From the NCBI GenBank assembly GCA_963695095.1, contig CAVOFT010000001.1:1184001-1248000 (forward strand): a DNA stretch of 64,000 bases, written 5' to 3'. Made by a program: the position numbers. The stretch comes from an uncultured bacterium (GTDB taxonomy: Bacteria > Krumholzibacteriota > Krumholzibacteriia > JACNKJ01). Shown piece by piece: positions 18,001 to 21,000 of the stretch (its first letter is position 1; each line of letters opens with the position of its first letter).

Positions 18001-21000
18001 CAGAAGGCACGGCCGAGGGCCGGCAGGCCGAGGCCGTCCGTGTAGAGGAGCAGAGGGGTCTCGCTGTCGATGCCCTGCGCGCCTAGCCAGGCGGCGAGGG
18101 AGCCGGCCTCACCTGCGGCGAGCGCGGTGGCCAGCGGCAGCTCCAGGTCGAAGGGGCGCGCGGCTGGGAGATGGCCTCGCGCGAAGGCCTCGGCGGGGCG
18201 CAGGTCGAGCGCGAGCGGGCGCTTCCGCTCGGGCGTCCTCGCCAACTCGCGGGGGCCGATCAGGATCTCCGGGTAGACGGGCTCGCGCGGCGGGGTGCGA
18301 CCCAGCCAGGGGAAGGGGTCGCGCGGGGCCTTGGTGTCGGCCCCGGTGGGGCCGCTCAAGGCGAGCCCGGCGAGGGCCAGGGCGAGGAGGGCGAGCTGGC
18401 GCATGGGGGCATCCTAGCCCCGGAGCGCGGCGGGGGCAAGGCGCAGGGCGCCGCTTGGCAGGCGAGCCCAAAACTGTTAGAATCATCTGGAATTGCCGCC
18501 GGGCCTGGGCTCGGGGCTGCCACCACATCCACAAAAGGACACCGAATGAAGGGCTTACGCTTTGCCCTCGCCGCGGCGCTGGCGGGTCTGCCCGCCCTGA
18601 GCGGAGCGGCGCCCGAGCTCGAGTGGGCCGCGACCCACGACGGCGGCGGCCTCTACGTGGACGAGGCCCGCCTTGCCCTCACGGACCCCGCGGGCAACCT
18701 GGTGCTGGCCGGCACCAGCCACGACGGCGTGGACGGCCTGGACCTGCTGGCCATGAAGCTGGCCAAGGACACGGGCGCCGTGCTCTGGGAGCGCCGCCAG
18801 CCCTCCTTCGACACCAACGACATGGCCGTGAGCGCGCTGAGCTGGGACGGGCTCGGCGACCTGCTCCTCGTCGGCTATGTCGTCGGCTGCGTGGGTTGAG
18901 GCCACGGCGACGACATCGTCGTCCTGAAGCTGGACGGCGAGACCGGAGAGGTTCTCTGGTTACAGCACTACGCTCCCGCAGGTGATCAGCACGAAACGGC
19001 CTACGCCGTGGCCGCGGCGCCGAACGGCGATGCCTTTGTCGTGGGGCGCGCCTACACGGCCGGCCGCATGGACGACGTCATCGCCCTGCGCCTGGCTGCC
19101 GCCGACGGCCACATCCTCTGGCTGAACCGCCTCGACGGCGGCAATGCCCGCAATGACCGCGGCTACGCCTGCGTGGCGGACGCCGCCGGTGACCTCGTCA
19201 TCACCGGCATCGCGGTGAACCCGGACGAATCGGCGGACTTCCTCACCCTCAAGCTGGCCGGCGAGGACGGCCAGCTGCACTGGACGCGGCGCGAGCCCGG
19301 CGCCGTCAACAACGAGACGCCGTCGGGCTGGCTGGGCCTGGCTGCGGAGGGCGGCGACGTCTTCATGGCCAACAAGACCTGGCAGACGGGCTACTCCTTC
19401 GACGCCGTGCTCGCGCGCTACGCGGGCGCTGACGGCGCCGTGCTCTGGAGCCGGCAATACGACAACGCCGGCGCGGCGGACGACCCGCGGCAGATGATCG
19501 TCGACGGCGCGGGCTGGCCCGTGGTGGCCGGCGTCTCGGCGGGCAACATGATGACGATGCGCGTGGACCCGACCAGCGGCGATCCCCTCTGGACCCGCTT
19601 CAAGGACGGGCCCATGGGCTGGTACGACCTCGCCAACTGCCTGGGCCTGGGCCCCGAGGGGCTGATCCTCGCCGCCGGCTTCATGGACGGCGGTGCGTCC
19701 ACCTGGGACGCGGCCGTGGTTGCCTACGCACCCGATACGGGCGATGAGGCCTGGACACTGGTCTGGGACGGCGCGGACAGCCTCACCGACGAGCTGCGCG
19801 CGCTCGCGCTCGCGCCCACGGGCGAGCTCTATGCCGTGGGCTACAGCTACGCGACCTCGACGGACATGGACATGCTCGCCCTGCAGTATCGCTTCGCGCC
19901 GACGGCGGTGGACTCGCCCTGGCAGCCGGCCGCGCTCGAGGCGCGCGCCTGGCCCAATCCCTTCCGCGAATCCGTGCAGCTTCGCCTCGCCCTGCCCGCC
20001 GCGGGCAGCTATCGCGCGGAGATCTTCGATGCGCAGGGCCGCCGCGTGCGGAGCCTCGACGGCGAGGCCGCGTCCGGCGAACTGAGCCTGCTGTGGGACG
20101 GCCGGGACGCGGAGGGGCGCGCGGCTCCGGCCGGTCTCTACTTCGTGCGCATCACGAGCGGCGGCGGCGAGTGGCGGGGGCGGCTGCTGCGCCTGCGCTA
20201 GTTGCCCGCTTCGGTCCGCTGAAGAACGATTCGACGCCCCGGTGCTCTGGTCCGGGGCGTTTCTGTAGCGTGCGGCAGGAAGTGCGAGCGATCGGCAGCG
20301 GGTGTATACTCCCAAGCGTCGGGCAAGGGTGCTGCCGATGAGGGGAGGTCCTGGTGATGGGCAAACGCTGCTTCGCAGCTGGGATAGTGCTTGCGATGCT
20401 GCCAAGCGGCTTTGCGAGCGGGGCAGAGGCCGCTCAGCTCCACGTCCCGCTCGAGTACCCCACGATCCAGGCAGCGGTCGATGCAGCGGCGCCGGGGGAC
20501 AGCGTCATGGTCTCACCTGGAATCTATGCCGCTCCGCCAGATTCAACACGGATCCTCCGGTGCATCGGAAAGGCCATTTACGTCATCGGCACGGCCGGTA
20601 GCGATTCCACCATCCTGTACGGGGCTGGCGGGGGAGGCCTATCCCTCATCGATGTGCCTCCTCCCGGGTTGAGCCTTCAGGGACTGACCATTGAAGAGTG
20701 CGCTGGTGGGATCTACTGCAGCGGCAGCGACCTCCTATGTTCGGAGATCCAGTGGCGCGGGAACTGCAGCGACCTTTACGCTGGCGGGCTGACGCTGATC
20801 AACTCCGTGGCTCGCATCACCGGTTCGGGTTTCGCAGACAACCGCAGCGGCTGGGATACCATTAGCGGTGGGTTTGGTGGAGCCCTCTATCTCTGGGGGG
20901 AGTCCTCCGCCTATCTCTCCGAGGTGGAGTTTTTGCGAAACGAGGCAAGCTTTGGAGGCGGTGCAATCGCCATGCTCCACGCGGATTCGCTCACCCTCGA

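Follow-up and report, generated by a model that had tools for sequence, protein, structure and literature searches.

The window, a stretch of 64,000 nucleotides from the genome of an uncultured bacterium of the phylum Krumholzibacteriota, contains on its forward strand a gene that standard annotation breaks at an internal TGA codon. Under translation table 11 the locus is divided into two open reading frames, g01051 (117 amino acids, ending at 18899) and g01052 (397 amino acids, starting at 19008). Publicly, too, the protein is annotated as short pieces: in the protein library, pieces from its C-terminal part, 365–432 amino acids long, make up about 22 clusters, and one NCBI fragment of 425 amino acids is named 'PQQ-binding-like beta-propeller repeat protein'. 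The preliminary description of this locus had joined g01051 and g01052 into one gene, and translation with TGA read as U indeed gave a single open frame of 551 codons, running from an ATG at 18546 to a TAG stop at 20199–20201. The sequence around the TGA codon reads GYVVGCVGUGHGDD. The features of the locus are collected in Table 1. The reading that we favour is that this is one gene, that its UGA is decoded as selenocysteine, that the product is a secreted beta-propeller protein and that the SECIS element lies within 18916–18961; for these four statements taken together we estimate a probability of roughly 0.8.

Table 1. Features of the predicted selenoprotein locus; positions refer to the window
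Feature	Position	Strand	Basis or remark
AAGGA, Shine-Dalgarno-like	18535..18539	+	6 nt upstream of the ATG; inferred from sequence alone
Predicted selenoprotein gene	18546..20201	+	551 codons plus TAG stop, single in-frame TGA; translated with TGA as U
Probable Sec-type signal peptide, residues 1–22, MKGLRFALAAALAGLPALSGAA	18546..18611	+	Judged by eye
Eight-bladed beta-propeller, residues 24–449, 32 strands	18615..19892	+	AlphaFold model, Foldseek
Cys115 codon (TGC), putative partner of Sec118	18888..18890	+	Invariant in 66/66 distinct full-length orthologues
TGA, predicted selenocysteine U118	18897..18899	+	Same alignment column in 69/69 matches
Hairpin of the preliminary description, GACGAC-AUC-GUCGUC	18909..18923	+	Overlaps helix 1; unsupported as SECIS
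Candidate SECIS helix 1	18916..18940	+	9 bp, 7-nt loop UGAAGCU; MFE fold and covariation
Candidate SECIS helix 2, GACCGGAGA-GGU-UCUCUGGUU	18941..18961	+	9 bp, 3-nt loop; covariation
Type-A T9SS C-terminal sorting domain, Ig-like, residues 469–551	19950..20198	+	TIGR04183, FlgD_ig

The product is predicted to be an exported beta-propeller protein

A new AlphaFold model based on 11 sequences (pLDDT 84.3, pTM 0.75) reproduced the all-beta propeller and Ig-like tail reported before and resolved eight blades. In this model, residues 1–19 had a pLDDT below 50 and residues 111–120 a pLDDT of 67, and the Cys/Sec motif was placed in the loop between the strands 105–112 and 124–130. The Foldseek matches were also obtained again, with CylK (7fh6, E = 6.9e-17; 7fh7, E = 2.8e-16) ahead of BamB (4pk1, E = 1.8e-11); BamB chains as a whole gave E values of 1e-10 to 1e-11 and TM scores, normalised to the target, of 0.46–0.69. 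The repeat motif of BamB/PQQ_2-type proteins is x-D-x-x-T-G-E-x-x-W. Like these propellers and the propeller domain of CylK, the window protein has eight four-stranded blades and a Trp-containing repeat. However, its sequence identity to BamB and CylK is only 14–19%, it has neither the lipoprotein signal of BamB nor the N-terminal domain of CylK, and, unlike both, it carries a predicted selenocysteine and a T9SS tail.

Profile searches agreed with the preliminary description in that FlgD_ig (42.7 bits) was the sole Pfam family over the cut-off, that the NCBIfam model Por_Secre_tail (TIGR04183) matched residues 469–542 with 29 bits against a cut-off of 23, and that no selenoprotein model of Pfam or NCBIfam covers the protein. 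The Pfam model Por_Secre_tail scored 19.6 bits, under its cut-off of 27. The weak match to delta_60_rpt (TIGR02608) was seen as well, but membership of the delta-60 repeat family was rejected because its 29.9 bits fall below the curated cut-off of 76.5. No PQQ or PQQ_2 family of Pfam was found on the window protein at E ≤ 1; PF13360 was recorded only for one related fragment (P0153) and one paralogue without the motif (P0157), and there was a weak profile match to PQQ quinohaemoprotein alcohol dehydrogenase (1.5e-5). The selenium-binding protein SBP56, which is also a propeller, was considered and rejected, there being no such Pfam match on the window protein.

The N-terminus combines a basic start, a hydrophobic core and small residues ahead of the cut, a pattern common to the 11 orthologues of the order. 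With this probable signal peptide, judged by eye, and an Ig-like tail over the TIGR04183 cut-off, the protein resembles the type-A T9SS cargo of the FCB group. The genome encodes a PorU sortase (438.4 bits, cut-off 420) and a SprA translocon (423.7 bits, over its cut-off), and type-A T9SS tails give more than 100 matches per genome across the order. The combination of a probable signal peptide, type-A sorting tail and BamB/CylK-like propeller that had been proposed is supported by these data, and we infer a cell-surface location for the protein. Blade 2 of the eight-bladed propeller spans the UGA, and the part downstream of it lacks a signal peptide of its own yet carries the secretion tail; the ribosome must therefore pass the UGA at codon 118.

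Copies were found in two taxonomic families, each with one TGA

A search at E ≤ 1e-20 carried the distribution beyond the order: of the 208 genomes compared across the phylum, 68 gave a match, with 69 copies between them. Carriers were found in two families only, with 10 of 11 genomes in the first (f1) and 57 of 91 in the second (f7), and seven other families had none. Each of the 69 copies contains exactly one TGA, always at the same site, and neither Cys, any other sense codon, TAA nor TAG was found at this column among them. In all 69 a Cys lies two or three residues upstream of U (C-x(2,3)-U). Together with the presence of SelA, SelB, SelD and tRNA-Sec, the constant position of the TGA supports the earlier assignment of selenocysteine to codon 118, near a Cys. 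Among 66 distinct full-length sequences, 31 protein columns on both sides of the TGA are invariant, including C115 and U118; G121, D122 and D123 are invariant too, the two Asp residues aligning with the Asp that has a structural role in the blade repeat. Protein conservation across the UGA persists down to 30% identity.

Some details of the earlier account had to be revised. A full-length orthologue with one TGA had been claimed for all 11 other genomes of the order; a six-frame search found it in 10, and genome G007 (2.2 Mb, 96% complete) gave only tail-region matches (residues 337–551, 33% identity). The motif GC[VAT]GU[GD]HGDD held with respect to its Cys and U, but in 4 of those 10 orthologues the sequence is GCGTGU, which is C-x-x-x-U. 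Nor is the loop a fixed C-x-x-U...H-G-D-D, as the spacing is two or three and His120 is not kept outside the order: the other family of the class has Q, E, A, T or G at this position. The two distant paralogues (32% and 28% identity) are without a TGA, as had been stated, and the whole loop is missing from them too.

No Cys-form homologue was found among the 69 matches in the 208 genomes, among the best 150 matches from 1.84 billion representatives, or in word-index searches with the motif region and with the N-terminal piece. A scan of 185,579 species genomes for the corresponding Cys-codon pattern gave one match only, which was out of frame and due to chance. The available text of PMC12013277 states that almost all selenoproteins have many Cys-form homologues, and in this respect the propeller family, for which none was found, differs from typical selenoproteins. 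Because no Cys-containing orthologue was found, the classic criterion of a Sec/Cys pair cannot apply here; such a pair of homologues is a usual, but not an obligatory, feature of bacterial selenoproteins.

The genome encodes the selenocysteine machinery

Profile searches of the same genome detected SelA (357.6 bits), the wing domain of SelB (40.2 bits, within a 1065-aa frame) and SelD (342.4 bits), the SelD gene itself having an in-frame TGA, and a tRNA-Sec with the anticodon tca is present. SelA was detected in all 12 genomes of the order, including G007, which has no copy of the selenoprotein gene, and across the phylum in 200 of 208. There is no general recoding of TGA in the lineage: counting the window gene in the set, 5 of the 11 propeller orthologues of the order use TGA as their normal terminator. 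In two other candidate selenoprotein genes of the genome, hairpins with a loop beginning with GG are predicted downstream of the UGA: GGA in SelD, where U was verified, and GGUC in a candidate Prx identified by motif only, both 17 nt after the UGA. A codon-usage scan for further genes with an in-frame TGA returned candidates of which most were adjacent genes in the same frame.

Two hairpins downstream of the UGA form a candidate SECIS element

The preliminary description had pointed to a hairpin starting 8 nt after the UGA. Its sequence is present, but a role as SECIS is unsupported by covariation: across 65 sequences, 251 of 500 shuffles equalled it, and 89.5% of its pairs formed, compared to 88.2% when the partners were slid by one codon. 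This hairpin is a by-product of GAY/GTC codons.

A structure of two helices was better supported. In 65 distinct sequences 91.0% of its cells are paired, with 9 pairs and 55 cells changed on both sides, compared to only 33–57% pairing for slid partners. None of 500 column shuffles matched it on any of five measures, a null that related sequences may exceed without any structure. In every one of the 65 sequences the MFE fold contained two or more hairpins. The fold of the single sequence from the window gene was unexceptional compared to shuffles (z −1.49). An Rfam scan of 18700–19200 at E ≤ 10 returned chance microRNA-like matches only and no SECIS family.

Helix 2 is paired in 96.9% of cells (65 sequences), with compensatory changes at columns 61–79 (AU 56, UA 6, UG 2, GU 1) and 67–73 (GC 54, CG 11); at 68–72 the counts are AU 52, CG 1 and unpaired 12. 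Its loop (18950–18952 in the window gene) is G[G/U]U in all 65 sequences and begins 50 nt after the UGA in 57 of them, the window gene included, and 53 nt after it in the other 8. No other stretch of the gene is as conserved in nucleotide sequence as helix 2. Among 533 windows compared, the one over residues 131–138 ranks lowest both in codon entropy, at 1.07 (mean 2.73, sd 0.54), and in third-position entropy, at 0.46 (mean 1.27, sd 0.20), even though in the long ORFs of the genome GTT makes up 2.3% of the Val codons and GGA 3.8% of the Gly codons. An alternative register, in which the loop would be GUU and two nucleotides would bulge out, was rejected, since the Q-L-V variants (CAG TTG GTC) pair only in the register with the GGU loop. 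A genomic repeat was ruled out by the single exact occurrence of the helix 2 sequence in the genome; five matches with three mismatches are unrelated.

In the published consensus for bacterial SECIS elements (bSECISearch model), as given in the available text of PMC13188914, the loop lies 16–37 nt from the UGA and usually has G[G|U] in its early positions. Helix 2 is like this consensus in its 9-bp stem, in a 3-nt loop of G followed by G or U, and in the stability of its local structure. However, its spacing is 50–53 nt instead of 16–37 nt, and the gap is occupied by a second hairpin that is itself supported by covariation. This hairpin, helix 1, could be the working SECIS of a selenoprotein in which helix 2 is kept for some other purpose, for example ribosome pausing, RF2 blocking or mRNA stability, a possibility that we regard as doubtful. 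Helix 1 does fit the published spacing (PMC13188914), its 7-nt loop, on a stem of 9 bp, beginning 25 nt after the UGA, and with 85.1% of cells paired it is the richer in compensatory changes, 5 of its 9 pairs having changed on both sides in the 65 sequences (columns 37–57, for example: GC 40, AU 17, GU 6, CG 1). A G occurs within the first two loop positions in 49 of the 65 sequences, but it is missing in the other 16, the loop exists in 17 variants, the usual G[G|U] pattern is absent, and the register moves by one codon between some lineages, whereas helix 2 has its G[G/U]U loop in all 65 and is more conserved than any other part of the gene.

In the preferred arrangement SelB would bind the GGU loop of helix 2, and helix 1 would be a folded spacer between the UGA and helix 2. 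With the 25 nt of helix 1 folded away, the path from the UGA to the GGU loop would measure about 25 nt, comparable to ordinary bacterial SECIS elements. To our knowledge, though no search was aimed at this point, no two-hairpin bacterial SECIS has been described.

A possible redox function of the Cys/Sec pair

The protein would be exported by the Sec pathway and would then fold in the periplasm, from where the type IX system would deliver the folded protein either to the surface of the cell or into the medium. In the model, Cys115 and Sec118 belong to a loop rich in glycine that links two strands of blade 2. Most likely the pair would alternate between the selenol/thiol form and a selenenylsulfide, and an extracellular oxidant, a disulfide, or a sulfur or selenium compound would be candidate substrates. 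That the two residues form a surface redox centre, a reading drawn from the C-x(2,3)-U pair, is in our judgement an even bet.

Selenoproteins with Cys-x-x-Sec or Sec-x-x-Cys are found in thioredoxin-like, DsbA-like, SelW/Rdx-like and AhpD-like families. The window protein is like them in that the UGA would be decoded with SelA, SelB, SelD and tRNA-Sec, that Sec is near a Cys and that a stem-loop within the coding region follows the UGA. It is unlike them in having a spacing of two or three on a Gly-rich loop and a tail that predicts export by T9SS. Compared to the CxxU oxidoreductases, moreover, it is all-beta, with the motif in a loop instead of at the helix N-terminus of a thioredoxin fold, and both this fold and the fact that the spacing varies set it apart from the known members of that group. 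In animal thioredoxin reductase, the C-terminal Gly-Cys-Sec-Gly redox tail is fed by a flavin/dithiol centre. The resemblance to this tail consists of a Cys/Sec pair, a flexible glycine-flanked segment and a possible selenenylsulfide, but here the residues are two to three apart rather than adjacent, the loop is internal rather than C-terminal, and there is no known electron donor. Bacterial selenoproteins with a Cys/Sec redox pair are treated as a general class in the available text of PMC13188914 and PMC12013277.

The same pair could instead be a high-affinity site for soft metals or chalcogens (Hg, Cu, Ag, As, polysulfide, selenide) that serves surface capture or carriage, although we consider this unlikely. 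A flexible glycine-rich loop with a spacing of two or three would allow chelation no less than a selenenylsulfide, and no obvious extracellular reductant is at hand. The acidic residues after U are conserved, but D122 and D123 match this Asp of the blade repeat, which has a structural role, and beyond the order His120 varies; no metal-binding family of Pfam or NCBIfam matched. A secreted multi-rhodanese gene adjoins the selenoprotein gene in the window and in 3 of 24 relatives' loci examined, a cation-efflux (CDF) gene adjoins it in genome G005 (Pfam), and an ORF similar to the latter lies upstream in G009 (BLAST cluster), yet these neighbours are lineage-specific. Genes for a tetrahaem cytochrome c and a cytochrome b561 lie divergently upstream in 17 of 65 loci, all of them within five related genera. 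No neighbour gene conserved throughout the family was found across the loci compared, and the neighbourhood was discarded as a clue to function.

Returning to the redox centre, the pair might belong to an obligate-Sec surface enzyme that acts as an extracellular redox terminal, is in part wired to the respiratory chain, and is encoded with a new class of two-hairpin SECIS. Such a protein would reduce or oxidise peroxides or species of sulfur, selenium or metal(loid)s, part of the family would be linked to the respiratory chain by the tetrahaem cytochrome c and the cytochrome b561, and the folded spacer would bring the distant SelB-binding loop into range. As a joint proposal this is speculative, and we think it rather improbable.

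Alternative readings of the UGA codon

If the TGA were a true stop, the locus would hold two genes or a decaying gene, encoding a secreted peptide of 117 residues and a separate protein of 397–433 residues. Gene callers and NCBI treat it in this way, as the clusters of C-terminal fragments illustrate, but this reading is very improbable: the codon is TGA, never TAA or TAG, in 69 of 69 copies, a propeller blade bridges the stop, the downstream part has a T9SS tail without a signal peptide, protein conservation crosses the stop even at 30% identity, and conserved RNA hairpins follow it. Least credible is insertion of Trp, Cys, Gly or Arg by near-cognate decoding or an altered code without selenocysteine; computation cannot distinguish the inserted residue, but 5 of 11 genes of the order end in TGA, the full Sec machinery is present and SelA is nearly universal in the phylum (200/208), and a Cys close by, followed by stem-loops whose loop begins with G, is what a Sec site typically shows.

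Significance of the propeller family

The literature search found no T9SS cargo with selenocysteine in print, and the main texts on BSepDB, the 2026 review and deep-Sep contain neither 'propeller' nor 'secret*', although the family may stand under another name among the 111 families of BSepDB. Selenoprotein finders, according to the available text of PMC12013277 and PMC13188914, lean on homologues with Cys and on a SECIS model whose spacing is 16–37 nt. Current finders would miss the propeller family, because it has neither known Cys homologues nor this spacing of its conserved GGU loop. The finding would correct the annotation of at least 68 genomes and would add a covariation-supported SECIS of unusual architecture. 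It would also add a selenoprotein in a beta-propeller fold and as extracellular T9SS cargo, neither of which was described in the literature searched, and a family in which Sec was never exchanged for Cys among the 69 copies found.

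One open frame and the machinery to decode its TGA

Translation with TGA read as U gave a single frame of 551 residues, with residue 118 in the context GYVVGCVGUGHGDD and one in-frame TGA between start and stop, as the preliminary description had proposed. The domain profile described there was also recovered: FlgD_ig was the sole Pfam family above the cut-off (42.7 bits), and in NCBIfam a type-A T9SS sorting domain was matched (29 bits against a cut-off of 23) and a delta-60 repeat appeared below threshold only.

Coordinates of the gene, its RNA helices and neighbouring features (window positions unless a locus is named)
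Feature	Position	Strand	Detail
Start ATG	18546	+	preceded by AAGGA
Sole in-frame TGA between ATG and TAG	18897-18899	+	
Stop TAG	20199-20201	+	
Helix 1	18916-18940		9 bp, loop UGAAGCU; fold of 18897-18975
Helix 2	18941-18961		GACCGGAGA-GGU-UCUCUGGUU; fold of 18897-18975
Rhodanese gene, divergent upstream	16950-18404	-	signal peptide
T9SS-tailed cargo genes	11065-13041, 13075-15516, 20354-21949	+	FlgD_ig-type tails
Secretion ATPase, then KaiC-like ATPase	23149-26924	+	
Tetrahaem cytochrome c and cytochrome b561, example locus of a relative	L065:578-1225 and L065:1-474	- and +	

The organism's own genome (3.64 Mb, two contigs) was found to encode SelA, a tRNA-Sec with anticodon tca, a SelB wing domain within a frame of 1065 residues and a SelD that itself has an in-frame TGA (GGUSAK). 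Across the phylum SelA was present in 200 of 208 genomes; two genomes that carry the selenoprotein gene gave no SelA match, and these are 72% and 83% complete. Within the order, five of 11 copies of the gene terminate in TGA, the one in the window counted among the 11, indicating that TGA remains a stop codon in this lineage. We put the probability of the gene model and of selenocysteine decoding at about 0.9. A further tRNA, at C1:736525-736612 (-) of the own genome, was left untyped by ARAGORN, which read its anticodon as four bases (gcat).

Other likely selenoprotein genes of this genome lie at C1:2731343 (-), C1:1611446 (-) and C1:70080 (-); their motifs are those of a peroxiredoxin (FVUPTE), a thioredoxin-like protein (WUGSC) and SelD. 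More in-frame TGA sites with coding-like codon usage on both sides, at C1:2603228 (-), C1:1064804 (+) and C1:758742 (+), carry the motifs GGUC, GGUAC and CGHDGU, and may be further selenoproteins or chance.

Distribution and absence of Cys forms

A full-length orthologue with exactly one TGA (42-80% identity) was found in 10 of the 11 other genomes of the order, which comprises 12 genomes in a single family; the count was reported earlier as 11 of 11; none was found in G007, a genome 96% complete, though SelA is present there. The two paralogues (32% and 28% identity) do lack a TGA, as previously stated, and the entire loop is missing from them. When residues 20-240 were searched against 208 genomes of the phylum (E<=1e-20), 68 genomes matched, including 10 of 11 in family f1 and 57 of 91 in f7, with no match in the seven remaining families. 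Each of the 69 matches has a single TGA, and on reading the site in every fetched copy we found U with Cys two or three residues before it; no Cys form occurs among them. The proposed C-x-x-U...HGDD loop held for Cys and U, but the spacing varies (it is C-x-x-x-U in four of the order's genomes, as well as in one of two tandem copies in an f7 genome), as does position 120, which is His in part of the family and Q, E, A, T or G elsewhere. G121-D122-D123 is invariant, yet in the alignment it falls on the blade repeat's structural Asp. The tandem copies (L106, G153:C8:45150-49000) both have the TGA, the other one in a C-x-x-U motif.

A HMMER pass over 1.84 billion representatives yielded no Cys orthologue of about 550 residues among the best 150 matches. 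The best of these formed about 22 clusters of 365-432-residue proteins starting at query residues 127-211, which are gene calls restarting after the TGA; one such fragment is labelled 'PQQ-binding-like beta-propeller repeat protein' by NCBI. The remainder were long multi-propeller proteins. Querying the word index with either the motif region or the first 117 residues brought up only such fragments, one motif-less paralogue or nothing. Scanning 185,579 species genomes for [VT]GC[GD]HGDD[IV], turned back into DNA with true Cys codons, produced no Cys form beyond one out-of-frame chance match, and U is present in each of the 8 true relatives that the scan confirmed.

A candidate two-helix SECIS supported by covariation

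The hairpin GACGAC-AUC-GUCGUC (18909-18923), which starts 8 nt after the UGA and had been put forward as the SECIS, is real as sequence, but its pairing was unsupported: among 65 distinct sequences, 251 of 500 column shuffles paired equally well, and the hairpin gained nothing over a one-codon slide of its partners (88.2% against 89.5% paired). It is a by-product of Asp (GAY) and Val (GTC) codons.

Folding of 18897-18975 gave two adjacent hairpins, which were assessed on alignment A3 (65 distinct sequences) with 500 shuffles and five measures. The result showed that 91.0% of cells are paired, with both-sided changes in nine pairs and 55 cells; none of the five measures was attained in a shuffle, and pairing dropped to 33-57% once the partners were slid. 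Compensatory changes were seen in helix 2 at pairs 67-73 (GC 54, CG 11) and 61-79 (AU 56, UA 6, UG 2, GU 1) and in helix 1 at pair 37-57 (GC 40, AU 17, GU 6, CG 1). Several require amino-acid changes on both strands, such as E-V-L to Q-L-V, or T to S paired with a change six codons downstream. Among 533 windows, the one encoding helix 2 (residues 131-138, GETGEVLW) ranks lowest both in codon entropy and in third-position entropy (0.46; mean 1.27, sd 0.20), a minimum repeated with 11 sequences. This is so even though GTT and GGA, the codons kept there, are uncommon in the own genome (2.3% and 3.8% of their codon families).

The consensus bacterial SECIS described in PMC13188914 has a 4-16 bp stem, a loop of 3-9 nt with G (usually G[G|U]) within the first two positions, and 16-37 nt from UGA to loop. 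Helix 2 has such a stem and loop in 65/65 sequences (GGU 52, GUU 13), but its loop lies beyond that distance, at 50 nt in 57 sequences and 53 nt in eight. Hairpins predicted downstream of the UGA in the own-genome SelD (U verified; loop GGA) and candidate peroxiredoxin (motif only; loop GGUC) both place the loop at 17 nt. The thioredoxin-like site has a CGUGA hairpin loop further away than this. We infer that SelB would bind helix 2, with helix 1 as a folded spacer; subtracting the 25 nt of helix 1 would leave 25 nt between UGA and GGU loop. A less likely alternative is that helix 1 and not helix 2 is the SelB site; helix 1 fits the consensus spacing directly (loop at 25 nt), but its loop takes 17 forms and lacks the G in 16/65 sequences.

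Fold, secretion and possible function

AlphaFold modelling on an 11-sequence alignment (pLDDT 84.3, pTM 0.75) placed residues 1-19 in a disordered or helical N-terminal segment and 24-449 in eight four-stranded blades (32 strands); a low-confidence linker (452-468) then leads to an Ig-like sandwich. The best Foldseek matches were CylK (6.9e-17) and BamB (1.8e-11), with other eight-bladed propellers such as tetrathionate hydrolase below them; profiles matched FlgD Ig domains, the PorU tail and, weakly, PQQ quinohaemoprotein alcohol dehydrogenase (1.5e-5). In the model the Cys/Sec loop (113-123; block 111-120 at pLDDT 67) connects strand 105-112 to strand 124-130 in blade 2, which means that the TGA splits a blade. 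In the usual PQQ-type naming it would presumably be a B-C loop, which would lie on the face where ligands normally bind.

PorU and SprA score above cut-offs, and more than 100 T9SS tail matches per genome indicate a large T9SS secretome. The cargo run around the gene encodes an M1 peptidase, an M14 carboxypeptidase and a right-handed beta-helix protein. Further downstream, a secretion ATPase of the T2SSE/MshEN type, which has a double zinc ribbon, precedes the KaiC-like ATPase, both unrelated to the selenoprotein.

Blade Trp, Gly and Asp aside, the residues that stand out as invariant across 66 sequences are C115 and U118. Most simply, the pair on its glycine-rich loop would be a selenenylsulfide redox couple, suggesting a redox function; the main alternative is that it binds a soft metal or chalcogen. 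In the window, and at 3 of the 24 loci tested in relatives, the divergent upstream neighbour encodes a secreted multi-rhodanese protein. The window copy, with Rhodanese matches in both pieces, is split over two frames (change near 17700-17750); its parts share one frame in the same-genus genome G010, implying a frameshift or assembly error. A tetrahaem cytochrome c of about 200 residues takes the divergent position in 17 of 65 loci, every one of them within five genera of f7; at the one locus checked, a cytochrome b561 gene follows beyond the cytochrome c. In G005 the upstream gene is a cation-efflux gene by Pfam, and in G009 an ORF similar to it is found upstream (BLAST cluster). As related genomes are not independent, these neighbours are leads rather than evidence of partnership, and hint at function within their lineages.

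A new selenoprotein family

The literature searched gave one unrelated match joining selenoproteins with type IX secretion, no description of a bacterial beta-propeller selenoprotein, and nothing combining seleno-terms with Eisenbacteria or Krumholzibacteriota; neither 'propeller' nor 'secret*' occurs in the main text of BSepDB (its family table aside), of deep-Sep or of the 2026 review. According to deep-Sep, Cys homologues exist for nearly all selenoproteins, and SECIS elements of atypical form get overlooked; for both reasons a family of this kind would be missed. Taken together, these results make a new family of secreted, propeller-shaped selenoproteins real and well supported, apparently Sec-only, with an atypical two-hairpin candidate SECIS that covariation supports.
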